Shown: positions 31,248-48,689 of the stretch, piece by piece
Layout: every line of letters begins with the position of its first letter
Numbering within the stretch: position 1 is the stretch's first letter
DNA from: an uncultured Chloroflexia bacterium
GTDB lineage: Bacteria > Chloroflexota > Limnocylindria > QHBO01
DNA length: 64,000 nt
Direction: 5' to 3'
Assembly (NCBI GenBank): GCA_963782015.1
Contig: CAWAHY010000004.1
Coordinates: 759,488 to 823,487, forward strand
Translations under genes and position numbers: made by a program
Notes under the pieces: model-generated
Told to the model about the DNA's origin: nothing
What the model saw: the letters and a program-made list of their open reading frames with translations, nothing else
Databases searched by the model: none

Positions 31248-32705
31248 TCAGAAGAGGCTGGCGGCCGAGCTCCGCAGGAACTCGATGATCGGGTCGGGGA
31301 AGAGGCCGAGCGCCAGCACGCCGGCCACGGACAGGCCCAGGGCCAGCACGGTGAGCGGTGAGCGCTCGATCGGGGCGGGGTCGGCCTCCGGCTCGCGCAT
31401 GTACATGTAGACGATCACGCGCAGGTAGTAGAACGCGGCGAGGGCCGCGTTGAGGGCGATCGCCACCGCGAGCCAGGCGACCCCGGCGTCGACCGTGGCG
31501 ACCAGCACGTACAGCTTGGCGAAGAAGCCGACCGTGGGCGGGATGCCGGTCAGCGAGAGGAGCAGGATCGCCATCGCCGCGGCCAGCGCCGGGGCCCGCC
31601 CCGCCAGCCCGGCGAACGCGTTCAGCCCGCCGAAGCGGCGCGGGTCGCGCTGCAGCATGCCCACCACGCTGAAGGCGGCGATGTTCATCACCCCGTAGCC
31701 GAGGACGTAGAAGAGGATCGACTGGATCGTCTGCCCACGCGCGGCGAGGTCCGTGGTGTGCGCGAAGGCGGCCAGCGCGGCCAGGATGTAGCCGGTGTGG
31801 GCGATGCTCGAGTAGGCGAGCATCCGCTTCACGTTGGTCTGGGCCAGCGCCACGAGGTTGCCGCCGGTCATGGTGATCAGGGCCAGGACCGCCATCACGC
31901 CGTACCAGTCGGCGCCGCTCGCCCCCAGCCCGTCGGCGAAGAGGCGCACCAGCAGGGCGAAGGCGCCGAGCTTGGGACCGACCGACAGGAAGCCGGTGAT
32001 CGGGAGTCGGGCGCGCCCTGGTAGGCGTCGGGGGTCCAGAAGTGGAACGGCACCGCCGCCGCCTTGAAGGTGGAGCCGACGGTGAGCATCGCGATCGCGA
32101 TCAGCCCGGCCGGGCCGGCGCCGCTCACCAGCCCGCCGATCTCCGAGATGCGGGTCGAGCCGGTCAGGCCGTAGGTCCAGCTGATGCCGAAGAGGAGGAT
32201 GGCGCTGGCGAAGCTGCCGAGCAGGAAGTACTTGAGCCCGCCCTCGTTGCTGTAGCGATCGGTCTTGGCGAAGCCGGCGAGCAGGTAGGCCGGCATCACC
32301 ATCAGCTCGAGGCCGATGAAGAGCGTGATCAGGTCGCTCGCCGAGGCGAGCACGAACATGCCGATCAGGCTGAAGAGCAGGATCACGTTGAACTCGCCCA
32401 GCGGCAGGCGGCGCCCGACCAGGTAGCCCGGCGCGAAGAGCGCGGCCAGGATGCCGATCACCACGCTCGCCGCCTTGAAGGCGACCGACAGGTCGTCCAC
32501 GCGGTAGAAGCCGGAGAAGACGGTCTCGTTCACGCCCCACGCGCCGACGCAGCGTGACGCCGACCACGCCCAGGCCGATCACCGTCAGCGGCGTCAGCAG
32601 CCACTTCTGCCCGCGGCGCAGGAAGAGGTCGACGGTCAGCACGAGCAGCACCAGCACCGTCAGCGCCAGCTCCGGGAGGAGGGCGTTCAGGTCGTCGCCG
32701 GTCAT
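31248..32705 (-). CDS. nuoN: Complex I subunit N (frameshifts near 32010, 32545)
   Basis: EGGLKYFLLG, VPFHFWTPDAYQG, KRMLAYSSIAHTGY, GIPPTVGF. Confidence 0.92.
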   Translation of the reverse strand: MTGDDLNALLPELALTVLVLLVLTVDLFLRRGQKWLLTPLTVIGLGVVGVTLRRRVGRERDRLLRLLPRGRPVGRLQGGERGDRHPGRALRAGLPGRAPPAAGRVQRDPALQPDRHVRARLGERPDHALHRPRADGDAGLPARRLRQDRSLQQRGRAQVLPARQLRQRHPPLRHQLDLRPDRLDPHLGDRRAGERRRPGRADRDRDAHRRLHLQGGGGAVPLLDPRRLPGRARLPITGFLSVGPKLGAFALLVRLFADGLGASGADWYGVMAVLALITMTGGNLVALAQTNVKRMLAYSSIAHTGYILAALAAFAHTTDLAARGQTIQSILFYVLGYGVMNIAAFSVVGMLQRDPRRFGGLNAFAGLAGRAPALAAAMAILLLSLTGIPPTVGFFAKLYVLVATVDAGVAWLAVAIALNAALAAFYYLRVIVYMYMREPEADPAPIERSPLTVLALGLSVAGVLALGLFPDPIIEFLRSSAASLF

Positions 32706-32709
32706 CGCC

Positions 32710-34230
32710 CTACCACGGCAGGAAGCCGGTCAGCCCAGGCGAGGCGTTGACGGCGTCGAGGATGCGCGCCACCGGCCCGGCGATCGCGTCGAGGACAGGC
32801 CCGGGGAAGACGCCCAGCCCCACCACCAGCAGGATCAGCGGGGCGAGCGAGAGCCACTCGTTGCGGCTCATGTCGGTCAGCTTCGGCCAGGCCTGTCGCA
32901 TCCAGTCCGACGGGACCGCGAAGAAGACGCGCTGGAACATCCACAGCATGTAGACCGCGCTGATGATCACGACCAGCATCGTGGCGGCGGCGACCCAGGC
33001 GGAGTACTGGAACGAGCCGAGGACGACCAGGAACTCACCGATGAAGCCGCTCAAGCCGGGCAGCCCGATGCTGGCGAAGGTGAACAGCCCAAAGATCGCC
33101 GCGTAGCGCGGCAGGCGCCCGTTGAGGCCGCCCATGTGCGCGATCTGGCGGTCGTGGGTGCGCTCGTAGATCACGCCGACGAGCAGGAAGAGCGCCCCCG
33201 TGGTGACCCCGTGGCTGATCATCTGGAAGACGGCGCCCTGCAGCCCCTGGGTGTTGAAGACGAAGACGCCGAGCATCACGAAGCCCATGTGGCTGACCGA
33301 GGAGTAGGCGATCAGCTTCTTGAGGTCCGGCTGCACCATGCTGACCATGGCGCCGTACAGGATGGCGACCACCGCCAGGCCGATGACGATGGGGGCGAAC
33401 TCCTTGCTGGCGTCGGGCAGGAGCGGCAGCGAGTAGCGCAGGAAGCCGTAGCCGCCCAGCTTGAGGAGCACCCCGGCCAGGATGATGCTGCCCGCCGTCG
33501 GCGCCTCGACGTGGGCGTCGGGGAGCCAGGTGTGGAACGGCCACATCGGCACCTTGATGGCGAAGGCCAGGAAGAAGGCGACGAAGGCGAGGGCCTGGAG
33601 GCCATCGGCGTAGCCAAAGCCACGCAGCGTCTCGTAGCTGAAGGTGAACGGGTTGCCGGCCGAGGCATGCGCGATCGCCACGGCCAGGATGGCGACCAGC
33701 ATCAGCAGCGAGCCGACCAGGGTGTAGACCACGAACTTGACCGTGGCGTAGATCCGCCGCGGCCCGCCCCAGATCCCGATGATCAGGTACATCGGGATCA
33801 GGCTCAGCTCCCAGAACACGTAGAAGAGGAACAGGTCGAGGCTGACGAAGACGCCCAGCATGCCGACCATCAGCAGCAGCATCGTGGCGTAGTACTCCTT
33901 GACCCGCGTCTGGATCGGGTCCCAGGAGTAGAAGATGCTGACCACGCTGAGCACGGTGGTGAGCAGCACCAGCACGACCGACAGCCCGTCGACGCCCATC
34001 GTGTAGCGCATCCCGAAGGCGGCGATCCAGGAGACATCCTCGCGGTACTGGAACTCGGCGCCGGTCGTCTGGTAGCCGAGCAGCGTCACGCTGAAGGCGA
34101 GGCTGGCGAGCGAGGCGATCAGGGCGAGCCAGCGGATCAGGCGCGCCTTGTCGCGCGGCACGAAGAGTATCGCCAGGGCCCCGATCAGCGGCGTGAAGAC
34201 GACCAGGCTGAGCACCGGCAGGCCGCTCAT
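32710..34230 (-). CDS. nuoM: Complex I subunit M
   Basis: FWE, KVPMWPFHTWLPDAHVEAP, KLIAYSSVSHMG. Confidence 0.96.
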   Translation of the reverse strand: MSGLPVLSLVVFTPLIGALAILFVPRDKARLIRWLALIASLASLAFSVTLLGYQTTGAEFQYREDVSWIAAFGMRYTMGVDGLSVVLVLLTTVLSVVSIFYSWDPIQTRVKEYYATMLLLMVGMLGVFVSLDLFLFYVFWELSLIPMYLIIGIWGGPRRIYATVKFVVYTLVGSLLMLVAILAVAIAHASAGNPFTFSYETLRGFGYADGLQALAFVAFFLAFAIKVPMWPFHTWLPDAHVEAPTAGSIILAGVLLKLGGYGFLRYSLPLLPDASKEFAPIVIGLAVVAILYGAMVSMVQPDLKKLIAYSSVSHMGFVMLGVFVFNTQGLQGAVFQMISHGVTTGALFLLVGVIYERTHDRQIAHMGGLNGRLPRYAAIFGLFTFASIGLPGLSGFIGEFLVVLGSFQYSAWVAAATMLVVIISAVYMLWMFQRVFFAVPSDWMRQAWPKLTDMSRNEWLSLAPLILLVVGLGVFPGPVLDAIAGPVARILDAVNASPGLTGFLPW

Positions 34231-36458
34231 GAACGGAAGACCAGGTAGGCGACCAGCACGACCACCAGGCCGGCGGCCATGCCGAGGCCGTAGTTCTGGA
34301 CGCGCCCTGTCTGCGAGCGGCGCAGCACCGCGCCCAGGCGCTGGGCGATCCAGCCGGCGCCGTTCACGGCACCGTCGATCACCTTGGCGTCGAACCACCA
34401 CAGGGCGTTCGCGACCAGCACGCCGCCGCGGGCCCAGACGAGGCCGTAGAGGTCGTCCACGTAGTACTTGTTGAGGCTGGCGGCGTACATCCCGGGGCCG
34501 AGCCCGAACGGGATGCCGGCCACGAAGCGCGCCGGCGCCTCGGGGTCACGCACGTACCAGCGGTAGGCGAGCCAGATGCCCGCCGTGCCTGCCGCCGCAC
34601 CGAGCAGGAGCAGCAGCCCGCCGATCCCGAAGAGGGTGAAGCCCTCATGCCCCCCTGCCAGGATCGAGCCGGGCAGGATCCCCGCCCCGGCCTCCTCGGC
34701 GCCGTGGAAGACCTCCTCCAGCCAGCCGTGGATCAGGCCGCCCTCGGGCGGCAGCCCGAGCAGGAGGCCGACCAGGATGGTCGGGACGGCGAGGATGATG
34801 AGCGGCACGACCATGGTCGGCGCCGACTCGTGGACGTGCGCCCAGGCGTCGCGCGGCCCGCGCCACGTGTCATGGAAGGTGAGGTACACCATCCGGAACG
34901 TGTAGAAGGCGGTCATGAAGGCGACCACCAGCCCCACCGCCCAGAAGAGGTAGTAGCCGCGCCCGAAGGCCTCCCCCAGGATCTCGTCCTTGCTGAAGAA
35001 GCCGGCGAAGATGGGGATCCCCGCCAGGGCCAGCGAGCCGACGACCATGGTCCGATAGGTCCACTTCATGCGTGACCGCAGGCCGCCCATGAAGCGCATG
35101 TCCTGCTCGCCCGACGCCCCGTGGATGACGGAGCCGGAGCCCATGAAGAGGAGCCCCTTGAAGAAGCCGTGGCTGACCAGGTGGAAGATGGCGGCCACCC
35201 AGGCCCCGATCCCCAGCGCGAAGAACATGTAGGCCAGCTGGCTCACCGTCGAGTAGGCGAGCACCTTCTTGATGTCGTTCTGGGTCAGCGCGATCGCCGC
35301 GGCGAAGATGGCGGTGAAGACGCCGATGCTGGCCACCACCCACATGGCGGTGGGGCTCTCCGCGAAGATCGGGTTGGAGCGGGCGACCAGGTAGACCCCG
35401 GCGTTGACCATGGTCGCGGCGTGGATCAGCGCGCTGACCGGGGTGGGGCCCTCCATCGCGTCGGGGAGCCAGACGTGGAGCGGGAACTGGGCGCTCTTGC
35501 CGACCGCGCCGGCGAAGAGGAGCAGCGCGATGAGGGTGATCAGCCCAGGATCCAGCGTCCCGATCGTCTCGAAGACCTGGTCGAACTGGAGCGTCCCGAG
35601 CGCCGTCCAGATCGCCATGATGCCGAGCCCGAAGCCGAAGTCGCCGACCCGGTTGACGATGAACGCCTTCTTGGCGGCTCCCGCCGCCGAGGGCTTCTTG
35701 TACCAGAAGCCGATGAGCGCGTAGCTGCACAGGCCGACCGCCTCCCAGCCGACGTACAGCATCAGGAAGTTGTCGCCCAGGATGAGGAGCAGCATGCTGA
35801 ACATGAAGAGGTTCAGGTAGGCGAAGAAGCGCCACAGGCCCCGATCGCCGTTCATGTAGCCGATCGAATAGACGTGGACCAGCAGGCCCACCGTGCTGAC
35901 GACGAGCAGCAGCATCGCGGTCAGGCCGTCCACCAGGAACGCGATCTGGATGTGGAAGCTGCCTGAGCCGATCCACTCGTAGAGCGAGACGTGGTACGTG
36001 TTGCCGCCGAAGACGACGTTGGCGAAGACCACCATGGAGAAGGCCCAGCCGATGGCCACCAGCGCGGTCGGCACCCACCACGACCGGTAGCGCGGCTGCG
36101 CCCCGCCCTCGACCACGTGGCCGACCTGCCCGAGCCCGTCGTTCAGGTCGTCGGGAATGACCCCATCGGCGCCGTTGCTGTTGGCCAGGTCGTCGGCGTG
36201 GCCGGCGTGCGGCGAGGTGGCCCGCTGCTCCTCTTCCGACGGGATGGGACGGAACGACGACTCGTCGACCTCGGCATGGGCATCGTGGGACTCGCCACCG
36301 TGCCCGGAGTGCCCCGCGTGGTCGTCGGCGTGATCGGCCCCGTGCGCGTCATGGCCGTGCGCCGGCATGCGGTCGATCCGCGGGCCGACCAGCACGGCGA
36401 ACAGGAAGCCGGCCAGCGGCAGCGCCGGGATGAGCACGATCAGGGTCTCGATCGTCAT
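34227..36458 (-). CDS. nuoL: Complex I subunit L with His-rich insertion
   Basis: GKSAQFPLHVWLPDAMEGPTPVSALIHAATMV, KKVLAYST. Confidence 0.96.
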   Translation of the reverse strand: MTIETLIVLIPALPLAGFLFAVLVGPRIDRMPAHGHDAHGADHADDHAGHSGHGGESHDAHAEVDESSFRPIPSEEEQRATSPHAGHADDLANSNGADGVIPDDLNDGLGQVGHVVEGGAQPRYRSWWVPTALVAIGWAFSMVVFANVVFGGNTYHVSLYEWIGSGSFHIQIAFLVDGLTAMLLLVVSTVGLLVHVYSIGYMNGDRGLWRFFAYLNLFMFSMLLLILGDNFLMLYVGWEAVGLCSYALIGFWYKKPSAAGAAKKAFIVNRVGDFGFGLGIMAIWTALGTLQFDQVFETIGTLDPGLITLIALLLFAGAVGKSAQFPLHVWLPDAMEGPTPVSALIHAATMVNAGVYLVARSNPIFAESPTAMWVVASIGVFTAIFAAAIALTQNDIKKVLAYSTVSQLAYMFFALGIGAWVAAIFHLVSHGFFKGLLFMGSGSVIHGASGEQDMRFMGGLRSRMKWTYRTMVVGSLALAGIPIFAGFFSKDEILGEAFGRGYYLFWAVGLVVAFMTAFYTFRMVYLTFHDTWRGPRDAWAHVHESAPTMVVPLIILAVPTILVGLLLGLPPEGGLIHGWLEEVFHGAEEAGAGILPGSILAGGHEGFTLFGIGGLLLLLGAAAGTAGIWLAYRWYVRDPEAPARFVAGIPFGLGPGMYAASLNKYYVDDLYGLVWARGGVLVANALWWFDAKVIDGAVNGAGWIAQRLGAVLRRSQTGRVQNYGLGMAAGLVVVLVAYLVFRS

Positions 36459-36462
36459 CGGC

Positions 36463-36771
36463 TCATTCCCGCAGGTCCGAGTACTCGTCCACCTCGGGGG
36501 TCTGGCGGGTGCGGATGATGGCGATCACCAGCGCCAGCCCCACCGTCGCCTCGGCCGCGGCCACGGCCATCACCAGCAGCGCGAAGATCGCGCCGGTGTC
36601 GTCGGGGGCGTAGTAGGCGTACGCGTTGAAGGCGACCAGGGAGAGGTTCACGGCGTTGAGCATCAGCTCGATGCTGATCAGCATCAGGATCGCGTTGCGC
36701 CGCGCCAGGAAGCCGAACATCCCGATCGCGAAGAGGAGCGCGGAGACGAGCAGGAAGCCCTGGAGGCCCAT
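36463..36771 (-). CDS. nuoK: Complex I subunit K
   Basis: RRNAILMLISIELMLNA, AAAEATVGLAL. Confidence 0.95.
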   Translation of the reverse strand: MGLQGFLLVSALLFAIGMFGFLARRNAILMLISIELMLNAVNLSLVAFNAYAYYAPDDTGAIFALLVMAVAAAEATVGLALVIAIIRTRQTPEVDEYSDLRE

Positions 36772-37283
36772 CAGTCGTTCGCCTTCTCGTCGTCTTCGGG
36801 GCGCCGCGCCAGGTAGATGGCCCCGATGATCGCGGCCAGCAGGAGCAGGCTCAGGATCTCGAACGGCAGCGCGTAATCGGTGAAGAGCGACTTCGAGAGG
36901 GCGTCGAGCGCGATGGCGAGGATCACGGTGGCGTTGCCCCAATCGGTCTGGACGACCGCCCAGCCGATCAGCCCCACCACCACGAAGGCGGCCACCGCGG
37001 CCAGGATCGCCTGGCGGTGGAACGGCGAGGGCAGGTTCGCGTCGCCGGCCTGGGTCAGCATGATCGCGAACAGGATCAGGACGCTGATCGCGCCGAGGTA
37101 GATGAGCACCTGCGCCGCCGCCACGATCGGGGCCCCCAGGAGCGCGTACATCCCCGCCAGCGAGCCGAAGCAGACCATCATCGCGATCGCGCTGTGGATG
37201 ATGTTGCGCAGCGTGACGACCAGCAGTCCGCCGCCGATGACGCCGACGGCGAGCAGGATGAAGAGGACGCCTGAGAGGTCCAG
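36771..37283 (-). CDS. nuoJ: Complex I subunit J (CTG start inferred)
   Basis: QVLIYLGAISVLILFAIML, PFEILSLLLL; AGGAG 8 nt before CTG. Confidence 0.9.
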   Translation of the reverse strand: MDLSGVLFILLAVGVIGGGLLVVTLRNIIHSAIAMMVCFGSLAGMYALLGAPIVAAAQVLIYLGAISVLILFAIMLTQAGDANLPSPFHRQAILAAVAAFVVVGLIGWAVVQTDWGNATVILAIALDALSKSLFTDYALPFEILSLLLLAAIIGAIYLARRPEDDEKAND

Positions 37284-37424
37284 GGCTACGGCTCCTGACG
37301 GAGTGTTCGGGCGCTCAAACGGCCTCGCCGATCTGCAGATCCGAGGCCGCGTCCGATTCTAGCGCAGCCGCTCCGGACGATCGGTCAATGGCAGGAATCG
37401 CGGCGCCCTGTCAATGTGCGCCCG

Positions 37425-37847
37425 ATGCGCGCGATTGCCGGCCTCCTCCTGGGCCTCTGGCTGGTCGGCGGCCTGTGGCTCACCCTCCAGCCGGCGCACC
37501 CGCTCCCCAGCCAGGTGGTCGACGACAACCTCGTCCCCTTCCACACCCTCGCCATCTACTGGCGCAACCTCGACTCGGACTTCTGGCTGCGCAACCTCTT
37601 CGGCAATCTCTTCCTGCTCCTCCCCCTCGGCCTGCTCGGCCCCATCGCCCTGCCCGTCCTGCGCCGATGGTGGCTGGTCCTCCCGCTGGCGCTGCTGATC
37701 TCCGCCTCGATCGAGCTCGCCCAGTTCCGGATCCCCGACCGTTCCGCCGACATCGACGACGTGATCGTCAACGTCACCGGCGCCCTGCTGGGCTATCTCA
37801 CCCTCAGCACCCTGCGCCTCTTCCGGAGACCCACCCAGGCGGCGTAG
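37425..37847 (+). CDS. VanZ family membrane protein
   Basis: NLVPFHT, GNLFLLLPLG, IELAQ, RSADIDDVIVNVTG. Confidence 0.88.
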   Translation: MRAIAGLLLGLWLVGGLWLTLQPAHPLPSQVVDDNLVPFHTLAIYWRNLDSDFWLRNLFGNLFLLLPLGLLGPIALPVLRRWWLVLPLALLISASIELAQFRIPDRSADIDDVIVNVTGALLGYLTLSTLRLFRRPTQAA

Positions 37848-37856
37848 CATCCGACT

Positions 37857-39617
37857 GTGCGCCGATGGTGGGGAGGTCGCGGCTATGCGGTCCTTGCCGC
37901 CGCCTCGCTCCTGACAGCCGGCTGCACCACGCCAGCTCCGAGCATCGAGCCCGCCTCCGTGCCTCCAACGGCATCGGTCGAGGCGTCTCCCGCGGTCGGA
38001 AGCAGCTGGGTCGAGCTGCCGTTGCAGCCGCGGGGAGGTCCCGGTGACCTATGGGTGCAGGGAGCTTACCGAGGTCCACAGGGCATCGCGGTTACCGGTC
38101 AGCTCGCCGGACCACTTGCGGAGGAGTCGTACGGCGTTCGACCAGTGGCCTGGTACTCGCCGGATGGGTCGTCGTGGCAGCCCGGGGTCGTCACGGTATT
38201 CAGTGACGGCTCGCAATTCGGGGCCGACAGGTTTGGGTCAATCTTTGAAAGCGATGGCCAGCTTTTGGCATTCCTGACCGGGAGCCGGAACGGCGTGGAC
38301 GATGCAACGACCGTGATGCTATCCGAGGATGGCGGGCAGAGTTGGCAGCCGGCCAACGTTGACGCATCGCTCGACGCCGTAGTCACGGACGTAGCCCGTG
38401 GTGGGCCGGGCTTTGTCGCCGTCGGATATACAACGGACCCGATTCGCCGCCGTGCAACAGTTCTGGTTTCCGAGAACGGCGTCGACTGGGCGTCCGAAGG
38501 GGAGGGACTCAGGACTACGCGAGGCCGTCCATTTGGCGCACTGAATGCGATCGCCTCCAATGGCGAAATCCTGGTCGCCGTGGGGTCCACTCGAGACACG
38601 CTGGACGAGCCTGGTCATGGTCGGGTATGGATATCGTTGGATGGCCTGGAGTGGACCCAACAACTCGAGCCAGACGACATGGGCGCGGAGATGAGCGATG
38701 TCACCGCGTATGCCGACGGCTTTGTCGCGGTCGGGAGTGTCCTCGGTGCGCCCGCCGCATGGTGGAGCCCCGACGGTGCGGCATGGACTCGAGCCGACCT
38801 TCCGGCGATCGGCGGTGCAAGATACGTCGCATCGCTGGCAATGATCGGGGACGGTCTTGTTGCGGTTGGCGATGCAACCGATCACGCTGTGGCGTGGCGC
38901 TCGTCCGATGGGCAGCACTGGGAGGCGGCGGGGCGGCTGACAAGCGAGGCAGCGTCGGCGCGGTTCGTTCTGTCTGTCGACTCAGGCGTCTTGGTTCTGG
39001 GCAACTCGCCGAAGCCTGCAGAGCCCCTGGCATGGCTCTCGCCTCCATCAATCGCCCGTCCACCCGAGCCCACAGCGTCGCTGCCGCTCGAGTCCTCGCC
39101 CGCACCGATCGCCGGGGAGACGCCCGGTCCGGACGCGACCCCTTGGCCGGGTGGAGCCTCACTTCCCGGCATCACCTTGACCGATCTAGCACGGCTTGCA
39201 GGGACGCTGGGCATGACCTGCCAATCTGGCGAAGGCACGATCCCAGACTCCTCGCAGACCCATTGGGTGCTGTTCTGCGAAGGCAGCCAGCACAACACCG
39301 ATCTGCGCCTCGAAGTGCAGTACTTCAACCCGCTCTCGATCTGGGAGATTTCCCTCAGCACGTCTCCCATCGACACTCAGCCCGGCGACGCAGCCTGGAT
39401 CGAAGCCGTCGCCAGCGCCGTGGTGAACCTACCCTACGCGGGCAACCACTATCCCGCTGACCCGGTCGGGTGGATCCGGGCGAATCTCCACCGCGCCGAA
39501 TGCTTCGGGACCTTCTCGTGCTCGCTTGACGACGGCACCGTGCAGATCGTGCTCCAACTCGGCTACCCGGGATGGGTGACGGTCCGCCTCGACCCGAGCC
39601 CCCAGCAGTATCGGTAG
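37857..39617 (+). CDS. Lipoprotein with Asp-box (SxDGxxW) beta-propeller and extra C-terminal domain
   Basis: Lipobox LTAGC; SPDGSSW, SEDGGQSW, SENGVDW, SLDGLEW, SPDGAAW, SSDGQHW. Confidence 0.8.
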   Translation: MRRWWGGRGYAVLAAASLLTAGCTTPAPSIEPASVPPTASVEASPAVGSSWVELPLQPRGGPGDLWVQGAYRGPQGIAVTGQLAGPLAEESYGVRPVAWYSPDGSSWQPGVVTVFSDGSQFGADRFGSIFESDGQLLAFLTGSRNGVDDATTVMLSEDGGQSWQPANVDASLDAVVTDVARGGPGFVAVGYTTDPIRRRATVLVSENGVDWASEGEGLRTTRGRPFGALNAIASNGEILVAVGSTRDTLDEPGHGRVWISLDGLEWTQQLEPDDMGAEMSDVTAYADGFVAVGSVLGAPAAWWSPDGAAWTRADLPAIGGARYVASLAMIGDGLVAVGDATDHAVAWRSSDGQHWEAAGRLTSEAASARFVLSVDSGVLVLGNSPKPAEPLAWLSPPSIARPPEPTASLPLESSPAPIAGETPGPDATPWPGGASLPGITLTDLARLAGTLGMTCQSGEGTIPDSSQTHWVLFCEGSQHNTDLRLEVQYFNPLSIWEISLSTSPIDTQPGDAAWIEAVASAVVNLPYAGNHYPADPVGWIRANLHRAECFGTFSCSLDDGTVQIVLQLGYPGWVTVRLDPSPQQYR

Positions 39618-39661
39618 TGAGCCTCTTGAGGAGAGTTCCCTCCGAGGCGCAGCATCGGCGC

Positions 39662-40108
39662 ATGCGTCGGAGGGGAGTCGGAGCGTCGCGAATCACGGTT
39701 TGGGCCGCGGCCCTGGTGGTGATCCTCGCGTTGTCAGCCTGCGGGCAGGGAGGGAGCCCGAGTGACGCAAACCAGGCCGCAGACGCGTTTTTCAATGCCC
39801 TGGTCCGCCGCGACGCCGACGAGGCCTGGTCTCACCTCCACCCTGACAGCCAGCACGACGTCTACGGCGATGACAAGGCGGCGTTTGCTCGGGACGTGAA
39901 CGAGGCCGACTGGGGTCAGTTGTCTTGGGAGGTTGGCCCCGTCGTCAATTTCGACTATGCCTGGGAGGTCCATCTGACCTTGGACGAGGCGACCGTTCCA
40001 GACTTTCTGTTCGAGCGTCGCCTTGCCGGATATTCCACGTACCTTGTCATGCAGGTCCAGTTCCCCGGCAAGCTCGACGACTACCTGATTATTGCCTGGG
40101 CTAGGTGA
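39662..40108 (+). CDS. Hypothetical lipoprotein
   Basis: Lipobox LSAC after a basic/hydrophobic signal. Confidence 0.65.
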   Translation: MRRRGVGASRITVWAAALVVILALSACGQGGSPSDANQAADAFFNALVRRDADEAWSHLHPDSQHDVYGDDKAAFARDVNEADWGQLSWEVGPVVNFDYAWEVHLTLDEATVPDFLFERRLAGYSTYLVMQVQFPGKLDDYLIIAWAR

Positions 40109-40260: not shown

Positions 40261-42643
40261 CTACCTGGTGGGCCGCTCCCGGTCGCTCATCTCCAGGATG
40301 TCGAGCATCGGCAGATCGCGCTGGTACTCGCTGAACTCGAACTCCGGCCCGCAGCGCAGGGCGTCGTACGGGCAGGCATCGGCGCAGATGCCGCAGAAGA
40401 TGCATCGGCTCATGTCGAGCTGGTAGGTCTCCAGGGTGCGTGGTCGCGGCATGAGCGCGCCGACCGGGCAGGTCTCCGCGCAGCGGCCGCATGACACGCA
40501 CGGCGTCTCATTGAGGGACACGAAGTCGGCCGTGGTGACGAGCGAGTCGAAGCCCTTGCCGATGAAGTCGTAGCAGCCGGCGCCCACGATCTCCTTGCAG
40601 ACCTGTGCGCAGCGGCCGCAGTCGATGCAACGGGAGTAGTCGCGCAGGATGAAGGAGTGCGTCTCGTCGCGGCCGTAGCCGTGGTTGACGCCCACGTACG
40701 GGTTGTCCTGGATCGAGCGCTCGTCGATCGCCATGTTGAGCGTCGTCTCGTACTCGATCGCCGCCTCCCGCAGGTCGCAGTGGCCGATCGCCTCGCAGGT
40801 GCACTGCAGGCAGCGCCCCGCCTCGGCCATGGCCTGGTCGCCGGTGTAGCCGTGCTCGTACTCGCCGAAGCTGCGGTTTCGCTCCTCGGCGCCGAGCTTG
40901 CCCATCACCGCCTTTGGTTCCTTCACGTCGTCGGTGAAGGGCACGATCGTGAGGAACGAGGGCTGTGGCTCGCTCACGATGCGGCGCACCTGTGGGTCGT
41001 CGAGATCGTGGCCGCGCAGCCAGTAGTCGATCGCGTAGGAGGCGCGCCGCCCCTCGCCGATCGCCTCGACCACGGTGGTGGCGCCGGCGCGCACGTCACC
41101 CGAGGCGAAGACCTTCGGCAGGCCGGTGCGGAAGATGTCGTCCTCGCTGACCAGCGTGCCGCGGCGGCTCGTCTCGAGCTGCGAGCGGATCTCCTCGGGC
41201 TCGCTCTCGATCCAGGAGAGCTCGGGTCCCTGGCCGATGGCGCCCAGCACGGTGTCGCAACTCACGATGAACTCGGTGCCGGGCATCGGCTCCGGACGGC
41301 GGCGGCCCTTCTCATCGGGCTCGCCCAGGTGCATGCGCTGGAACTCGACCCCCGTTACCTTGTTGCGCTTGTCGGTCACGATGCGGACCGGCGCCGCCTG
41401 GAAGATGACCCGCGCCCCTTCCTCGATCGCCTCGTGCACCTCGTCCTGCGCCGGCATGTCTTTCAGGTCGCGCCGGTAGACGAGGGTCACCTCGGCAGCG
41501 GACTGGCGGATGCTGGTCCGCGTGCAGTCGATGGCGGTGAACCCGCCGCCGATCACGACGACCCTCGCCCCCTTCAGCGCCGGGATGGGGACGCCACGCG
41601 AGCTGTTGTAGAGGTTCTCGAGGGCGTTGACCACGCCGTCGGCGTCCTCGCCGGGGATCCCCATCTCGTTGGAGCGGTAGCAGCCGGTGCCGATGTAGAC
41701 CGCGTCGTAGCCCTGCTCCAGCAGGTCGGCGATGTGGAAGTCGCGGCCGAGCCGCATGTTCGGGCGGAAGGTGGCGCCCAGCTCCCAGACGTGGTTCAGC
41801 TCGCGGTCCATCCACTCCTTCGGAAGCCGATAGGCGGGGATCCCGTAGCGGAGCATGCCGCCCTGCTCCGGATCGGCCTCGTAGACGTCGCAGTGATGGC
41901 CCCGCAGCTGGAGGTAGTAGGCGGCTGACATGCCGGCCGGGCCCGAGCCGATGACCGCCACGCGGCGCCCGGAGTCAGGCTCCTTGGGCCATGGGGTGGG
42001 GGCCGGGGCATCGACCTCGAGGACGCGGTCGGCGCAGTAGCGGTGCGAGTCGCGGATGGCGATGGCGGTGTCGACCTCCTCGCGCCGGCAGTGCGTCTCG
42101 CACGGCGCGGGGCAGACGCGGCCGAGGATGGCCGGGAACGGCAGCGAGCGCTTGAGGATGCGCGTCGCCTCCTCCCAGTTGCCCAGCGTGTTCTGCTTGA
42201 GGTAGCCGGGGATGTCGACCCGCGTCGGGCACTTGAACTGGCAGGGCGGCAGGCAGTAGGCATCGTGGTCGCTGAAGATCAGCTCCAGCACCATCCGGCG
42301 GTTCTCGACCAGCCGATCGGAGTGGGTGGTGATGACCATCCCCTCTTCGATCTGCGTCCCGCAGCGAGATGGGGGTGTTCGCCTGCCCCTCGACCTCGAC
42401 CACGCAGATCCGGCAGGCACCATAGGGCGCCAGCTTCGGCTCGTAGCAGAGCGTCGGGACATCGATGCCGAGCACGCGGCAGGCCTGGAGGATGGTCTGC
42501 CCCTCCTCGGCCTCGACCAGCGCGCCGTTGATGGTGACGGCGAGCTTGCGGGTGCCCGGCACCATCGGCCAGATGGGGGTGTAGTCCTCCGGGCGCAGCG
42601 GCGCCCCCTTGCCGTTCCCGTTGCCGTTGGTGACGAAGCTCAT
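40261..42643 (-). CDS. NuoG-N-like Fe-S module with inserted GltD/SfrB-like FAD/NAD(P)H domain and C-terminal half-NuoI (frameshift near 42365)
   Basis: PTLC..GACRICVVEV [2Fe-2S]; PPCQFKCP, GRVCPAPCE, IGSGPAG, GGMLRYGIP, IGGGFTAID, YRR; CIDCGRCAQVC, CVSCGRCAETCP, CIFCGICADACP. Confidence 0.88.
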
Positions 42644-42655
42644 GGCCGGTGCATC

Positions 42656-44008
42656 TTAGAGGTGTGCCAGCGGGGCGATGAGGGGAGCGACCGGCGTCGT
42701 GCGGCACGCGCCGGCGAGGCACTCGCCCCGCTCGGCGTGGGCCCGGTACTCGTCGGCGAAGCGGTCGAGGGTGGTGAGCATCGGCCCCGGGGCGCGGGAC
42801 TCGAGGTGGCAGAGCGCCGTGTCGTGCATCTTGCGGGCCAGGTCGCGCATCAGCTGCGGGTCGCTCGGGCGGGGGCTGGCGGCCAGGACCCGGTCGAGCG
42901 CCTCGACCAGCCGCTTGGTGCCGATCCGGCAGGGGACCGCCTTGCCGCACGCCTCGCGGGCGGAGTAGTCGAGGAAGAAGCGGGCCGTGTCGACCATGCA
43001 GGTGTCGGTGTCGGTGACGAGCACCTGTCCGAGGCCGATGCCGGCTCCGGCCGCATGGAGCGCGTCGAAGTCATAGGGCGTGTCCAGCTCCTTCGCGGCG
43101 ATGGCCCCACCCCCCGGCCCGCCGACGAAGACCGCCTTGGTGGTCCCGGTCCCGCCGCCGGCGAGCGCGACGATCTTCGAGACCGGGGTCCCCAGCGCCA
43201 CCTCGGCCAGGCCCGGCTGCGCCACGCGGCCGTAGATGCTCACCAGCTTCGTGCCGGGAGCCTCCTTGCTGCCGACCGCGGCGAACTTCTTCGCGCCGTG
43301 CCGCGCGATCCACGCGACGTGCGCCAGCGTCTCGCCGTTCTGGACGACGGTCGGCGCGCCGCGCAGCCCGCGCTCGGTCGGGTACGGCGGCCGGATGACC
43401 GGCATGCCGCGATCGCCGGCCAGCGCGGCCAGCAGGGCGGTCTCCTCCCCGGCGACGAGCGCCGGCGCTCCCTCCCAGACCGAGACCACGCACGAGAAGT
43501 CGGTGCCCATCACCAGGTAGCCGGCGAGGTGCGCCGCATCGGCCTCGGCGACGGCGGCCCGCAGCCGCTCGATCGCCACGCTCCAGTCGCGGCGGACGGC
43601 GATGACCGCCTCCGACGCGCCGATCGCGAAGGCGGCGACCAGCAGCCCCTCGAGGACCAGGTGCGGATTCCCCTCGGCCAGCGCCCGGTCTCCGAGGGCG
43701 GTGGGATCGGCCCCGATCAGGTTGGCGACGACCTTGCGCTCGCCCTCGACCGCACGGGCGGCGCGCCACTTGTCGGCGGTGGGATAGCCACCGCCCCCGC
43801 GGCCGCGCAGGCCGGCGGCGGCGATCTCGTCGACGGTCCCCTCCGCGCCGAGCTTCGCGACGGCGCGCTTCAGGCCGTCGTAGCCGCCCGCCTTGCGGTA
43901 GCTGGCCAGGCTGGTCGGGTCGACGGAGCCGATCTCGGCCAGCAGGCGCTGCTCGCCGCCGGGCAGGATGCGGATCTGCGGGGAGAGGCCGGTGGAGCGG
44001 TCGGTCAC
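42656..44008 (-). CDS. nuoF: NuoF-like flavoprotein, degenerate
   Basis: GLRGRGGGGYPT..KW, GEETALL, PPYPTERGL, VGGPGG, EACGKAVPCRIG. Confidence 0.85.
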   Translation of the reverse strand: MTDRSTGLSPQIRILPGGEQRLLAEIGSVDPTSLASYRKAGGYDGLKRAVAKLGAEGTVDEIAAAGLRGRGGGGYPTADKWRAARAVEGERKVVANLIGADPTALGDRALAEGNPHLVLEGLLVAAFAIGASEAVIAVRRDWSVAIERLRAAVAEADAAHLAGYLVMGTDFSCVVSVWEGAPALVAGEETALLAALAGDRGMPVIRPPYPTERGLRGAPTVVQNGETLAHVAWIARHGAKKFAAVGSKEAPGTKLVSIYGRVAQPGLAEVALGTPVSKIVALAGGGTGTTKAVFVGGPGGGAIAAKELDTPYDFDALHAAGAGIGLGQVLVTDTDTCMVDTARFFLDYSAREACGKAVPCRIGTKRLVEALDRVLAASPRPSDPQLMRDLARKMHDTALCHLESRAPGPMLTTLDRFADEYRAHAERGECLAGACRTTPVAPLIAPLAHL

Positions 44009-44847
44009 GAGATGGACGCCCCCGCCGGCTTGCGGGCCGGGCCCTTGCGCCGCTCGGCCACGACATGGCGGCCATCCGCCACGGAGAGCGGGCCGTAGAC
44101 CAGGGTGTCGACGCGCAGCGCCGGGGAGAGCGCACCGGCCGCAATGTCGTCCCGCGTCTCGAGGCTGACCGAGCCGTCCGCCGTCGTCTCGCCGGGCGAG
44201 ATGCCCAGGTCGGCGCAGATGGCGGCCAGCAGGGCGTCGCCGCCGGCGAAGCGGCAGGCGGCGCAGGTGCAGACGCTGACCAGGTGCCCGTCGGTGGGGA
44301 GGAGACGGAAGCCGCCCAGCCCGGCGGCGCCGAAGACCTGGGCCCAGTGGATCGACATCGTGTCGCTCACCTGGCGCAGGGCCAGCTCGGGCAGGTAGCC
44401 GTAGCGCGACTCCACCGCGGAGAAGATGGCGACCAGCGCCTCGGGGCGCCCGCCGAAGCCGTCGATCACGCCGCGCAGCCACGGGGCGTCGATCGCCTCG
44501 TCCCAGCGCGCCGCGTTGCGCATCGGCTCCGCCGGCAGGCCAGCTCGCCGGAAGGCGTTGGGGTCCTTGCGCTCGTCGTAGATCTCCGGCATGCCGTAGC
44601 GGATCCGGTTCCCCTGCGAGTCGAAGCCGCTCATGTCGATCGCCTCCACCGGGCAGACCTGCGCGCACTGGAAGCAGACCTCGCACTTGTGCTCGCCGAA
44701 CGGGTCGTAGATCAGGTCGAGGCGACCACGCCAGCGGTCCGGCATGGTCGGGCGCGACTCGGGGTACTGGTTCGTGACCTTGGGCGCCCAGTAGTTGCGC
44801 CCCGTCTGGCGCAGCCCCTTGAGGATGCCGAAGCCGGGGATCCTCAC
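44005..44847 (-). CDS. Fusion of N-terminal half of NuoI with a NuoE-like domain
   Basis: VTNQYPE..RWRG..KCEVCFQCAQVCP, then YGYLP..VSVCTCAAC..LGISPGETTADG. Confidence 0.85.
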   Translation of the reverse strand: MRIPGFGILKGLRQTGRNYWAPKVTNQYPESRPTMPDRWRGRLDLIYDPFGEHKCEVCFQCAQVCPVEAIDMSGFDSQGNRIRYGMPEIYDERKDPNAFRRAGLPAEPMRNAARWDEAIDAPWLRGVIDGFGGRPEALVAIFSAVESRYGYLPELALRQVSDTMSIHWAQVFGAAGLGGFRLLPTDGHLVSVCTCAACRFAGGDALLAAICADLGISPGETTADGSVSLETRDDIAAGALSPALRVDTLVYGPLSVADGRHVVAERRKGPARKPAGASIS

Positions 44848-45854
44848 AGCTTGAAGGCCACCACCGCCGCGGCGGTGACGAGCAGGTTGACCATGGCCAG
44901 CGGCAGCAGGACCTTCCAGGCGGCGCTCATCAGCTGGTCGATCCGGACGCGCACCAGCGTCACGCGCAGGAGGACCGCGAGCGCCACGAACAGGTACGTC
45001 TTGAGGAAGAACCAGAGGACGCCATACAGCGTGCCGGCGAAGCCGTCGAGCTGCGCGGGGAACGGCCAGGGAGCCAGCCAGCCGCCGAAGAAGAGGGCGG
45101 CCATGATCCCGCTCATGATGAAGAGGGCCACGTACTCGGCGAAGAAGAAGAAGCCAAAGCGCATGCCGGAGTACTCGGTGAAGGGCCCGGCCACCAGCTC
45201 GCTATCGGCCTCGACCATGTCGAACGGGGTGCGGTTGATCTCCGCCAGCGAGGCGATGTAGAAGATCCCCAGGCCGACCGGCTGCCAGATCAGCATCCAG
45301 CCGTGGGCCAGCTGCCATTCGATCAGCTCGCGGAAGTTGAGCGTCCCGGCCAGGACCACCGCCCCGACCACCGACAGGGTCAGCGGGATCTCGTAGCTGA
45401 CCATCTGCGCGGCGCTGCGCAGCCCGCCCAGCAGCGAGTACTTGTTGTAGCTGGCCCAGCCGGCGACCAGCAGCCCGACCACGGAGAGGCCGATCACCGC
45501 GAAGAAGTAGACGATCCCGATGTTGAAGTCCGCGGCGATGGCGCCCGGCGCGAAGGGGATCACCAGCATGCTCATGGCCGCCGCCATGTAGACCATCCAC
45601 GGCGCCAGGGTGAACGTGGCGCGATCGGCCTGGTCGGGGATGTGGTCCTCCTTGGCGAGGACCTTGAAGCCGTGGATCGTGCTCTGGAACATGCCCCACG
45701 GGCCGATCCGGTTCGGCCCGTAGCGGAGCTGCGCGCCGGCGATGATCTTGAGCTCCATCTGGATCACCACGAACGCGGTCGGCACCGTCAGCAGCAGGAT
45801 CAGGGTGGTGGCCAGCAGGAAGCGCAGGACGCCGAGGACGACGCTCCAGTCCAT
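44844..45854 (-). CDS. nuoH: Complex I subunit H
   Basis: RYGPNRIGP, KYSLLGGLRSAAQMVSYE, NRTPFD..ESE-like, TEYSG. Confidence 0.96.
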   Translation of the reverse strand: MDWSVVLGVLRFLLATTLILLLTVPTAFVVIQMELKIIAGAQLRYGPNRIGPWGMFQSTIHGFKVLAKEDHIPDQADRATFTLAPWMVYMAAAMSMLVIPFAPGAIAADFNIGIVYFFAVIGLSVVGLLVAGWASYNKYSLLGGLRSAAQMVSYEIPLTLSVVGAVVLAGTLNFRELIEWQLAHGWMLIWQPVGLGIFYIASLAEINRTPFDMVEADSELVAGPFTEYSGMRFGFFFFAEYVALFIMSGIMAALFFGGWLAPWPFPAQLDGFAGTLYGVLWFFLKTYLFVALAVLLRVTLVRVRIDQLMSAAWKVLLPLAMVNLLVTAAAVVAFKL

Positions 45855-47105
45855 CTACTTGTCCACCCCGCCCATCACCGGGTCGAAGCTGGCCATCACC
45901 GCCATGGTGTCGGCGATGAGGCGCCCCGGCATCAGCTTCGGGATCGCCTGGAGGCTGACGAAGCTCGGGTCGCGCATGCGGAACCGATACGGGTTGGGGC
46001 CGCCGTCGCTGATGGCGTAGACGCTGTACAGGCCGCGCGGCGACTCGACTGCGGCGTAGGCGCGCCCCGGCTTGGGGCGGATGATCCCCGGCACCTGCGC
46101 CTGCACGGGGCCGTGCGGCATCTTGTCGACGATCTGGTCGATCAGGTGGATGCTCTGCTTGATCTCGGCCACGCGCTGCAGGTAGCGGGCGTTCGAGTCG
46201 CCGCCGGGCTGGGTGATCACCTCGAACTCGAGCTCGGGGTAGATCGAGTAGGGATGCGCCTTCCGCACGTCGAACGGCACGCCCGAGGCGCGCAGGTTCG
46301 GACCGGAGACGCCCAGCGCGATCGCGTCCTTGCCCGACAGGACCCCCATCCCGATCGTCCGCGCCCGGAAGATCTCGTTGTCGGTGATCACCCGCTCGCT
46401 CATCTCGACGTTCTTCAGCACGTTGGCCCGCCAGCTGCCGAGGCGCGAGAGGAACTCGTCGTTGGTGTCGAAGTTGACGCCGCCGACCCGGAAGAAGTTG
46501 AAGAGCATCCGCTGGCCGCTGATCGCCGAGAGCATGTCGACGATCTCGTCGCGGTTGATGAAGCCGTACAGGATGGGGGTGATGCCGCCCATGTCGAGCG
46601 CCAGGAAGCCCATCATCAGGCTGTGGCTGAAGACCCGGTTCAGCTCCACCACCAGCGCCCGGATGTACTCCGCGCGCCTCGGGGCCGCGACCCCGAACAG
46701 CTTCTCGAAGGCGATCGCGGGGGCGTGCTCGTTGTGCATCCCCGACAGGTAGTCCATCGGGTCGACGTAGGTCATCACGGTGGTGTAGGTGGCGTTCTCG
46801 CACAGCTTCTCGATGCCGCGGTGCAGGTAGCCCAGCACCGGGTCGACATCGGTCACCACCTCGCCACGGACCTTGACCACGAGGCGCATGACGCCGTGGG
46901 TGGAGGGGTGCTGCGGGCCCATGTTGACCAGCATCTCGCCCTCTTCGAGGGAGTAGATCTCGCGCTCGCGCTCGGTCTGCGGCGGCCGATCCGGCAGCCC
47001 CACCGACTCGAAGCCCGCGTAGTCGCCAACGGGGCCTCGCGCGGGGGGCAGCCCGGCGACCGTGCGCAGGCGCGCCTCCTCGTCGCGCTCCAGGTCGACC
47101 GTCAC
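45855..47105 (-). CDS. nuoD: Complex I subunit D
   Basis: NMGPQHPSTHGVMRL, GYLHRGIEK, ESPRG; no [NiFe] CxxC motifs. Confidence 0.95.
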   Translation of the reverse strand: MTVDLERDEEARLRTVAGLPPARGPVGDYAGFESVGLPDRPPQTEREREIYSLEEGEMLVNMGPQHPSTHGVMRLVVKVRGEVVTDVDPVLGYLHRGIEKLCENATYTTVMTYVDPMDYLSGMHNEHAPAIAFEKLFGVAAPRRAEYIRALVVELNRVFSHSLMMGFLALDMGGITPILYGFINRDEIVDMLSAISGQRMLFNFFRVGGVNFDTNDEFLSRLGSWRANVLKNVEMSERVITDNEIFRARTIGMGVLSGKDAIALGVSGPNLRASGVPFDVRKAHPYSIYPELEFEVITQPGGDSNARYLQRVAEIKQSIHLIDQIVDKMPHGPVQAQVPGIIRPKPGRAYAAVESPRGLYSVYAISDGGPNPYRFRMRDPSFVSLQAIPKLMPGRLIADTMAVMASFDPVMGGVDK

Positions 47106-47686
47106 GACTCGCCCTCCGCGTGGGCGATGACGCCCGGGGCCAGCTCCTCGGAGAGGCGTGAGAGGTCCCACGTCTCGGGGCGCTCGAGCGGCCGCACGCC
47201 GGCCGCAGGGGAGTCGGCCGCGTCGTCGGGGAGGAGGAAGTCGCGGCGCTGCGGGAAGCTGCGATAGTCGGGCGACATGTAGATCCGGCGCAGGTCGCGG
47301 TTCCCGTCGAAGACGATCCCCATCATGTCGTACATCTCGCGCTCGTGGAACATCGCCCCCTCCCACAGGCCGGTGATGGTGGGGATATGGGGATCGGCGC
47401 GGTTCACGTGGGCGCGGACGCGGAGCCAGGCGGGGTGACGATCGGAGTAGAGGTGGTAGACCACCTCGAAGTGCTCGGTGGGGCCGTAGTCGACCGCGGC
47501 GGCATCGGCGAGGTAGAAGAAGTTCAGCTCGGGCTCGTCGCGCAGCGGCCGCAGGACCTCCACCACGCGGCTGCCGTCGATCGAGACCTCGACGCTGTCC
47601 TCATCGGTCCACAGGCTGGCGGCCAGCTCCGGGAATCGGTCGAGCAGGAGCCGGACCAGGGCGCCCGCCTTGGCCGGGGCGCTCAG
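47102..47686 (-). CDS. nuoC: Complex I subunit C (CTG start inferred)
   Basis: [26 protein letters not shown]. Confidence 0.92.
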
Positions 47687-48339
47687 CGCACGTCTCCTTC
47701 CCAGTCCTGCCGCTGGACGCCGCGGTCGACGAACGTCGACCATTCGCCGCGCCGCTGCTTGACCAGCTCCTGGAGCCGCATCATCCCGTAGATCAGGCCC
47801 TCCGGTCGGGGCGGGCAGCCGGGCACGTAGACGTCGACCGGCATCACCCGGTCGACCCCCTGCACCACGCTGTAGGACCGCTTGAAGCGACCGCCCGAGG
47901 TGGTGCAGGTGCCCATCGCCACGCACCACTTGGGCTCGGGCATCTGCTCCCAGAGGCGGACCAGCGGGCCGGCCATCTTGGTCGTCAGGGTGCCGGCCAC
48001 GATCAGCACGTCCGCCTGCCGAGGCGAGGCGCGGAACGGGAACATCCCGAAGCGGTCGATGTCGTTCTTGGAGGTGGCGGTGCTCATCATCTCGATGGCG
48101 CAGCAGCTGAGGCCGGAGAGGAGCGGCCAGAGCGAGTTGGCGCGGATCAGGTCGAGGACGATGTCGGCCCGGGTGGGGATCACCTCCAGCAGGCCGTGGA
48201 AGCCGCCCTGCGGATGCTCCTCCATGCCGAACTCGCGGAGCAGCTCGTCATCGGCCTGGTCGGCGACGACGATGCGCCCGTCCGCGGAGAGCGACGCGGT
48301 GACCTTGCCCTCGGCGCGGGGCGGGGTCTCTAGCGCCAC
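47683..48339 (-). CDS. nuoB: Complex I subunit B
   Basis: [25 protein letters not shown]. Confidence 0.96.
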
Positions 48340-48689
48340 TTGAGGTCACCCTTCTTCCAGGCGTACAGCTCGCCGAAGAGGAGGATCCCCAGGAAGACGC
48401 CGATCAGCACGATCCCCTGCACCGCGATCGCCCGCACCGCCACCGCCCACAGGTAGACGAAGACGATCTCGACGTCGAAGGCCACGAAGAGCAGCGCGTA
48501 GAGGTAGAAGGCGAGGCCGAAGCGCGACCAGGTGTCGCCGATGGTGTCGATCCCGCACTCGTACGGCAGGCCCTTCTGCGGGGTCCGCCGGCGGTGGGTG
48601 ATCAGCCACGAGAAGAGGATCGTGCCGAACACGAAGATCGATGCGGCGATCCCGAATCCGATGACGTAGAGCAGTCCGGTCTGATCCAT
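48330..48689 (-). CDS. nuoA: Complex I subunit A
   Basis: PYECG, FVAFDVE, AWKKG. Confidence 0.95.

Follow-up and report, generated by a model that had tools for sequence, protein, structure and literature searches.

The 64,000-nucleotide stretch of DNA analysed here (the window), from contig CAWAHY010000004.1 of an uncultured member of Candidatus Limnocylindria (assembly GCA_963782015.1), contains a minus-strand nuo operon in a genome of about 70% G+C, and raises the question of which electron donor drives the complex I encoded by it. Complex I is a textbook example of an enzyme specific for reduced nicotinamide adenine dinucleotide (NADH), and the natural alternatives known to us are ferredoxin, F420H2 and flavodoxin. 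Its membrane and Q-module subunits NuoA, B, C, D, H, J, K, L, M, and N are all encoded here, once each and in operon order. The genome has no second copy of any nuo gene and contains one Complex1_51K gene, and the locus is its sole complex I, an 11-subunit-type operon nuoABCDH-I-JKLMN. Its proton pump probably runs on the phosphorylated donor, NADPH. The best explanation of the locus, to which we assign a probability of roughly 0.6, is an NADPH:quinone proton pump that arose from a module of the Stn/NfnABC type (Sporomusa ovata 8oh5, Thermococcus sibiricus 9n5u, and 9bov) captured within nuoI, with the NuoE- and NuoF-like (E- and F-like) proteins acting mostly as scaffold and a frameshift in the large-subunit gene being a likely assembly error.

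The candidate entry site for electrons lies in the largest protein of the module, a NuoG/StnC-like polypeptide whose gene truly starts at 42643 and ends at 40261. In its frame 40261-42462 the motifs SDH, GSGPAG, GGGFTAID, YRR and CLQCTC...C are all present, and Pfam recognizes Fer4_20 (PF14691), Pyr_redox_2 (PF07992) and 4Fe-4S domains but neither a molybdopterin nor an H-cluster domain. The 5' part of the gene (42366-42643), located in the frame upstream of a break, encodes a 2Fe-2S domain (PF13510, E value 3.4e-15). It is followed by a GltD/NfnB-like domain (41008-42264) with predicted sites for two 4Fe-4S clusters, flavin adenine dinucleotide (FAD) and NADPH (Fer4_20 and Pyr_redox_2; 4ylf_B, E value 1.9e-86), and by the Cys part of a His-ligated cluster together with a HydA/NuoG-type 2x[4Fe-4S] domain (40447-40812), as delimited by alignment with StnC and NfnA, in which all Cys are invariant. 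Exactly as in StnC, the inserted GltD-like domain separates the His ligand of the N5-type cluster from its Cys ligands. The sequence-only reading of this region had described a NuoG-like protein without molybdopterin or H-cluster domain and with a GltD-like domain between SDH and the Cys ligands, and both Pfam and the StnC alignment bear this out; the motifs that it quoted for NuoE, NuoF, and NuoG are likewise all found on the minus strand.

An alignment of the large subunit from 10 sequences of the class, representing five families, revealed that all four Cys of the 2Fe-2S site, the His of the SDH motif, the C-x2-C-x-C-x5-C pattern of the His-ligated cluster, both HydA-type motifs and the NuoI-type motif are invariant (10/10). 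The same is true of GxGPAG, GGGxT..D and Y-R-R. The FAD/NADPH site of GltD/NfnB type and all Fe-S ligands are thus intact, and the site is apparently of the NADPH type. Nucleotide preference was evaluated by alignment with GltD and PreT of Escherichia coli, with preferences as annotated in RefSeq. At the end of the second Rossmann strand NADPH-dependent GltD has A-Y-R-R-D, while NAD+-dependent PreT has V-A-R-E-E; the window protein and two distant class members contain V-Y-R-R at this discriminating site, and the arginines of the motif presumably contact the 2'-phosphate of NADPH. The proposal that the domain is of the NADP(H) type agrees with these data, since its motifs are invariant and Y-R-R matches E. 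coli GltD rather than the A-R-E of PreT. Y-R-R is also present in StnC, NfnA and 9bov_A, and StnC binds NADPH and FAD in its GltD-like domain (PMC10482914).

The three genes of the module resemble transhydrogenases more closely than complex I. The best solved relatives of the large protein are 9bov_A (E value 1.1e-145), 8oh5_C (1.3e-129) and 9n5u_A (1.5e-127), with alignments spanning residues 61-698 of 9bov_A and 62-700 of 8oh5_C. The NuoF/StnB-like protein, encoded at 42656-44008 from a GTG codon that overlaps the upstream stop codon (GTGA), comprises 450 residues representing the core only, and carries Complex1_51K, SLBB, and NADH_4Fe-4S domains. It is closest to 9bov_B (5.3e-115) and 8oh5_B (6.2e-114), while true NuoF proteins are matched at about 1e-71. 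It scores 308.5 bits with TIGR01959 against a cut-off of 558.65, and does not contain the FMN (flavin mononucleotide)/NADH site and four-Cys N3 ligand set of complex I NuoF. Similarly, the NuoE/StnA-like domain (44005-44502; PF01257, E value 6.9e-20), whose 2Fe-2S site is incomplete, has 8oh5_A as its best solved relative (3.2e-21), reaches only 46.9 bits with TIGR01958 (cut-off 142.4) and lacks the four-Cys N1a site of complex I NuoE. Because Stn/NfnABC proteins are closer than true NuoF (about 1e-115 versus about 1e-71), the module is a truncated transhydrogenase of the Stn/NfnABC (Bfu) type, not a worn-out complex I NuoEFG. The notion of a degenerate NuoE and NuoF, put forward in the sequence-only reading, is therefore correct as regards the loss of the NADH/FMN segment, the N3 Cys and the NuoE ligands, and incorrect as regards the ancestry of the proteins.

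The module interrupts nuoI. The first of its genes (44005-44847) codes for a 280-residue protein in which Pfam detects a thioredoxin-like 2Fe-2S domain of NuoE type and a single 4Fe-4S motif at the N terminus. This N-terminal part (44563-44847) is the N-terminal half of NuoI, with the first CxxCxxCxxxCP motif, fused in frame to the E-like domain; it matches positions 4-74 of the 121-position NuoI model TIGR01971 (47.4-48.7 bits) and residues 9-85 of E. coli NuoI (E value 3.6e-11). Positions 71-112 of the same model are matched by the C terminus of the large protein (49.6-57.6 bits). This protein ends about 60 residues past its ferredoxin domain with no Pfam molybdopterin match, and these last 60 or so residues (40264-40446) are the C-terminal half of NuoI, containing the second CxxCxxCxxxCP motif and the tail. 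Both halves score below the TIGR01971 cut-off of 113.05, the two motifs are not united in one polypeptide, and a search of the genome with TIGR01971 found no other NuoI. Since two complementary NuoI pieces lie on two different proteins, the three-gene module sits inside a split nuoI. Conservation across the class was assessed in 47 loci, which yielded 42 distinct F-like and 42 distinct NuoI/E-like sequences, with open reading frames (ORFs) called from tblastn matches. The four Cys and the Pro of the NuoI N-terminal half are all kept in 42/42 of these sequences, and the C-terminal half is 95-100% identical within family-level relatives, with a ratio of non-synonymous to synonymous substitution rates (dN/dS) of 0.05-0.12. 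For the N-terminal half (residues 1-100) paired with the last 134 residues of the large subunit, a predicted complex, modelled with no controls, gave a median score of 0.30 relative to a mark of 0.32. The limits of 40261 and 44470 drawn earlier for the feature enclose most of it, with the NuoI N-terminal half cut off at the upper end; the split of nuoI, like the frameshift, had passed unnoticed.

The E- and F-like proteins have lost much of what a catalytic flavoprotein would require. The F-like protein contains NLIGADPTALGDR at residues 96-108, GAPALVAGEE at residues 180-189 and CGKAVPC at residues 354-360. Compared with solved relatives that bind FMN and NAD, NADEGDPGAF is changed to NLIGADPTAL, GAGAFVCGEE to GAPALVAGEE, NNVET to QNGET, and CGKCxYC to CGKAVPC, in which the second Cys of cluster N3 is replaced by Ala. 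The rewritten segment is the NADH-site segment Cys91-Arg109, described as highly conserved (PMC6560083), and the Asp replaced in the F-like proteins of the class is the counterpart of Asp-195 of T. sibiricus NfnB, which was proposed to stabilize the FMN semiquinone (PMC12018979). In the E-like domain CTCAAC is retained at residues 193-198 (numbering of the 44005-44847 protein), while ETRDDIAAG occupies residues 230-238; here the CLGCC of the 2Fe-2S site has become DIAAG and the second Cys pair is gone. Of the 584-residue B subunit, the F-like protein corresponds to residues 106-525 only, and the N-terminal 2Fe-2S and C-terminal 2x[4Fe-4S] domains, whose roles in bifurcation are described in PMC10482914, are therefore missing.

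These losses are class-wide and deepest in the family to which the window belongs, so that the conservation of the substitutions in orthologues, which had been suggested as a check, is evident across five families. Asp is absent from the FMN position in all scored class sequences (0/41), its place being taken by Tyr (26), Ile (7), Met (4) or Phe (4). The second N3 Cys is found in 11/42 sequences, which thus have all four N3 Cys, and is otherwise replaced by Thr (18), Ala (9) or Ser (4); the remaining three are kept in 42/42. Within the window's family none of nine sequences has the second Cys, all of them reading CGKAVPC, and the aromatic residue of GAGAY is missing in 6/9. A separate count of F conservation in 18 sequences omits the partial L026 sequence, located at a contig edge. 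The first Cys pair of NuoE is present in 24/42 class sequences and the full four-Cys set in 0/42, and some class members are devoid of the whole thioredoxin-like half of the E-like protein. In families f2 and f5 E is reduced to its helical part, yet F keeps all four N3 Cys (L022-L029, L054, L057). For the window's family the sequence makes a catalytic flavin in the F-like protein unlikely.

Comparison of the window with 7-8 family relatives gave dN/dS values of 0.20-0.44 for the F-like protein and 0.23-0.59 for the E-like domain, versus 0.07-0.23 for the large subunit, 0.09-0.34 for nuoH and 0.19-0.36 for nuoL; the values for nuoM and nuoN, mostly cross-matches between paralogues (above 1), were dropped. 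Constraint on the E- and F-like proteins is relaxed about two- to three-fold, yet they are clearly kept by purifying selection. A structural role for both is reasonable, because the losses are class-wide and occurred in proteins that remain under purifying selection.

The following scheme can be proposed for the origin and operation of the enzyme. An 11-subunit-type operon would have taken up a three-gene module of Stn/NfnABC type inside nuoI. NADPH would pass hydride to the FAD of the GltD-like domain, from which electrons would flow through the two 4Fe-4S clusters of this domain to the His-ligated cluster and then to the HydA-type clusters. The next carriers would be the two clusters of NuoI, each of them with Cys ligands from both fusion proteins, in line with the 2x[4Fe-4S] ferredoxin fold, and the path would end, via N2 in NuoB, at quinone, with the usual proton pumping. 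The E- and F-like proteins would have given up their cofactors for bifurcation, namely the 2Fe-2S cluster of E, the two additional domains of the B subunit, the Asp that contacts FMN and, in the window's family, one N3 Cys, and would serve as a scaffold tying the NuoI N-terminal half to the N terminus of the large subunit. In Stn, subunit B contacts both A and the N-terminal part of C (PMC10482914); a scaffold role is suggested because equivalent contacts, from the fused NuoI N-terminal half and E through F to the large subunit with its NuoI C-terminal half, would close a ring on NuoI. NADH-derived electrons could enter the NADPH pool through PntAB.

Several observations weigh against this scheme. 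The glycine-rich FMN loop of the F-like protein is kept (G71 and G74 in 41/41 scored sequences), as are Lys80 (41/41 scored) and G-E-E (42/42); PT and GGPGGG are invariant or nearly so across the class, and 32/42 class F sequences retain the aromatic residue of GAGAY. StnB, HydB, and Nqo1 all hold FMN by the glycine-rich loop (PMC10482914). Residual binding of flavin or nucleotide by F may therefore occur, above all in families with four N3 Cys. In the large subunit, the Lys ligand of the flavin-proximal 4Fe-4S cluster (K170 of StnC), called conserved in all NfnABC enzymes (PMC12018979), is replaced by His140, invariant in 10/10 class sequences. This residue is encoded at 42043-42045 (numbering of the 40261-42462 frame), and the aligned residue is Glu in E. 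coli GltD and Gln in PreT. The specificity for NADPH as donor is one that we infer from the motif and from homologues. Finally, the large-subunit gene is frameshifted as assembled, with one extra base at 42364/42365, and contigs from the RNA library X15 (depth 27.8 at the site) show no deletion row, although these contigs end nearby.

The conserved residues of F could also be accommodated by an enzyme with dual input or one using NADH, in which the F-like protein would bind FMN and oxidize NADH or exchange hydride with NAD+, so that the complex would accept both donors or act as a quinone-linked transhydrogenase. The (near-)invariance of the loop, Lys80, G-E-E, PT, and GGPGGG, the complete N3 ligand set in 11/42 sequences and the loose binding of FMN even in active StnB (PMC10482914) are all compatible with such an enzyme. 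It is nevertheless unlikely, if the strongest of the rivals, given the replacement in 41/41 sequences of the Asp whose counterpart, Asp-195, is the proposed semiquinone stabilizer (PMC12018979), the rewriting of the Cys91-Arg109 segment (PMC6560083), and, in the window's family, the loss of the second N3 Cys in all nine sequences and of the aromatic residue in six. A flavin in F would also be left without a good electron exit, the 2Fe-2S cluster of E having disappeared and N3 being impaired. The earlier suggestion that NuoE and NuoF are mainly structural thus remains reasonable, in view of class-wide losses under selection, and has to be qualified by the flavin-loop residues, Lys80 and G-E-E, which are kept in 41-42 of 42 sequences.

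The same structure could alternatively operate in reverse, as a quinol:NADP+ reductase driven by the proton-motive force and supplying NADPH for biosynthesis, an option for which the sequence-only reading had left room. Complex I is reversible in principle, and the sequence gives no direction. Reverse operation is, however, improbable, more so than a second input at F, for the only complex I of a genome. The NDH2_C probe found no NDH-2 in the genome, a weak negative, as this probe matches only 3/14 control genomes; with this reservation, a forward respiratory role seems needed. Moreover, PntAB, present in 79/81 class genomes, already makes NADPH at the expense of the proton-motive force. PntB is encoded at G000:C4:1060504-1061874 in this genome and was found in 4/14 control genomes; its near-universality in the class fits, circumstantially, a cell that moves reducing power into NADPH.

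The frameshift in the large-subunit gene deserves separate consideration. The extra base (42364-42365), recognized by reading the sequence, falls between the codons for the third and the fourth 2Fe-2S Cys, and the 5' part of the gene upstream of it is 87-91% identical to relatives with a single-frame gene. In nine genomes of the same genus the gene is a single frame of 796-797 residues, with an internal TAG in one of the nine, while in three few-contig assemblies (G004, G011, G022) it is broken at other positions. Contigs from DNA runs of relatives lack one base at 42364/42365 (1/1 in X1 and four in X4), and X16 contigs do not cover the site. No sequencing run holding the window's strain was found, the best word share being 0.21, from relatives. 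In this assembly the rpoB gene is likewise divided between two frames (C2:43135-43738, with the break near C2:43331-43347, outside the window), which suggests indel errors in the assembly; rpoC is intact, and the assembly comprises 4 contigs of 2.1 Mb in total with a completeness of 82.7%. An assembly indel is a quite probable cause of the frameshift. Programmed frameshifting was set aside because relatives encode one frame. At 41900-42900 of the window, metatranscriptome contigs from ice and soil (X15, X16), 85-99% alike, derive from relatives, with possible carry-over of DNA.

A dying operon, in which the frameshift and the E/F substitutions, including a GAPALVAGEE whose Pro is unique to the window's genome among nine family sequences, would reflect strain-specific decay or sequencing artefact, is very improbable, since the same losses recur in five class families at dN/dS well below 1, orthologues occur almost throughout the class, the extra base is absent from relatives, and the split of the essential rpoB points to indel errors. 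The class-wide losses and the dN/dS values refute strain-specific decay of E and F; sequencing error, named earlier as an outcome that would overturn the interpretation, fits the frameshift only.

The remaining genes of this complex I are those of a regular nuo operon. Upstream of the module, nuoA (48330-48689) is an ORF in the same orthologous position in all operon-type relatives; nuoB (47683-48339), the start codon of which is uncertain, scores 222.3 bits with TIGR01957 (cut-off 142.7); nuoC (47102-47791) is an ORF whose place between nuoB and nuoD is kept in relatives; nuoD (45855-47066) scores 414.8 bits with NF004739 (cut-off 360) and encodes the NuoD-type GPQHPSTHG; and nuoH (44844-45854) is an ORF of 336 residues with 93-94% identity in genus relatives. 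Downstream, the single-copy ORFs nuoJ (36771-37181), nuoK (36463-36780), nuoL (34227-36458), nuoM (32710-34248), and nuoN (31248-32705), all on the minus strand, follow in the order seen in relatives. In NuoL the first helix is followed by about 100 residues rich in His and Asp (HGHDAHGADHADDHAGHSGHGG...); alignments with family relatives start at residue 1, and those with other families only at about residue 119-157. The large-subunit gene is separated from nuoJ by 2.9 kb of plus-strand ORFs, which encode a VanZ-like protein (37416-37847; PF04892) with a gene also in two genus relatives, a protein of 586 residues (37857-39617) with no Pfam match and not seen in either of these two relatives, and a protein of 178 residues (39572-40108) found in one of the two (45% identity).

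Orthologues of the large subunit (E value at most 1e-120) are encoded in 285/301 genomes of Candidatus Limnocylindria that are at least 80% complete, in 166/168 high-quality genomes and in 60/60 genera, ten unpublished genomes being included in these counts. Five other class genomes have one Complex1_51K match each, 4/5 of them above the cut-off. Families f1, f3, and f4 have the full operon A-B-C-D-H-[I'E]-F-[G'I'']-J-K-L-M, and families f2 and f5 have a B-D-[I'E']-F-[G'I''] cluster without adjacent nuoA, C, H, and J-N, with nuoH on another contig. Outside the class, the best loci (13 of 15 non-class loci were inspected) are E-F-(GltD)-G clusters of the ordinary Bfu type, with neither NuoI halves nor NuoB/D. 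There is perhaps an even chance that the whole class respires with a natural NADPH-specific proton-pumping complex I, which would have originated from the capture of a soluble bifurcating transhydrogenase by splitting NuoI, with E and F reduced to a cofactor-poor scaffold, and would represent an independent second invention of the input module.

For Limnocylindria, common inhabitants of soil and lakes, such a natural NADPH-driven proton pump would change models of energy yield and redox balance. The locus would also present a new docking mode for an input module, through a two-cluster ferredoxin subunit split between two fusion proteins, and a natural experiment in which the core of a bifurcating flavoprotein decays into a scaffold. 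Standard annotation as NuoE, NuoF, NuoG/glutamate synthase and NuoI would hide the nature of the module. No description of an NADPH-input complex I with split NuoI was found in the literature on Limnocylindria, NuoG/GltD or engineered NADPH complex I, supplements lying outside the scope, and the system is not described in the accessible portions of PMC10482914, PMC12018979, PMC6560083, PMC4758237, bioRxiv 2021.08.23.457424 and bioRxiv 366732. The nearest printed ideas are a gltD-like protein replacing NuoI in Mbx-like operons (PMC4758237) and an engineered NADPH-using complex I of E. coli.

Overall, the module most closely resembles StnABC/NfnABC, with which it shares the gene order E-like, F-like, large subunit, and a large subunit containing the 2Fe-2S domain, the GltD-like FAD/NADPH insert in the His-cluster motif and the 2x[4Fe-4S] domain, together with the same Y-R-R motif for NADPH and the same Arg near FAD. 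The FdhF/molybdopterin-like C-terminal domain of these enzymes is, however, absent here, with a NuoI half in its place; the N-terminal 2Fe-2S and C-terminal 2x[4Fe-4S] domains and the FMN Asp of the B subunit are all missing, in the A subunit the 2Fe-2S site is incomplete and a NuoI half is attached, and the Lys ligand of the flavin-proximal cluster is changed to His. The module is, moreover, encoded within a membrane complex I operon, and as such would not bifurcate to ferredoxin. With the canonical NuoE/NuoF/NuoG module it has in common homologous folds and, probably, the role of electron-input end of a NuoB/D/H/I proton pump. Unlike the canonical genes, those described here lie after nuoH and inside nuoI rather than between nuoD and nuoH, no molybdopterin-like domain is present, and electrons probably enter at FAD/NADPH in the large subunit instead of at FMN/NADH in NuoF. 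The engineered E. coli complex I of Morina et al. (2011), in which a NuoF variant oxidizes NADPH, is reportedly an energy-converting NADPH:quinone oxidoreductase; that enzyme is said to be a laboratory point change of the NADH site, whereas the present one would be natural and use a different domain and flavin. Thermotoga and some proteobacteria have Mbx-like operons with a gltD-related flavoprotein in the position of NuoI (Degli Esposti, 2015; PMC4758237), and the likeness consists in a GltD-type NAD(P)H flavoprotein on a complex-I-like membrane module. There, the flavoprotein replaces NuoI in a complex of Mrp/Mbx type, while in Limnocylindria NuoI is kept but split, remnants of E and F are retained, and the other genes, nuoD and nuoH among them, form a true Nuo operon.

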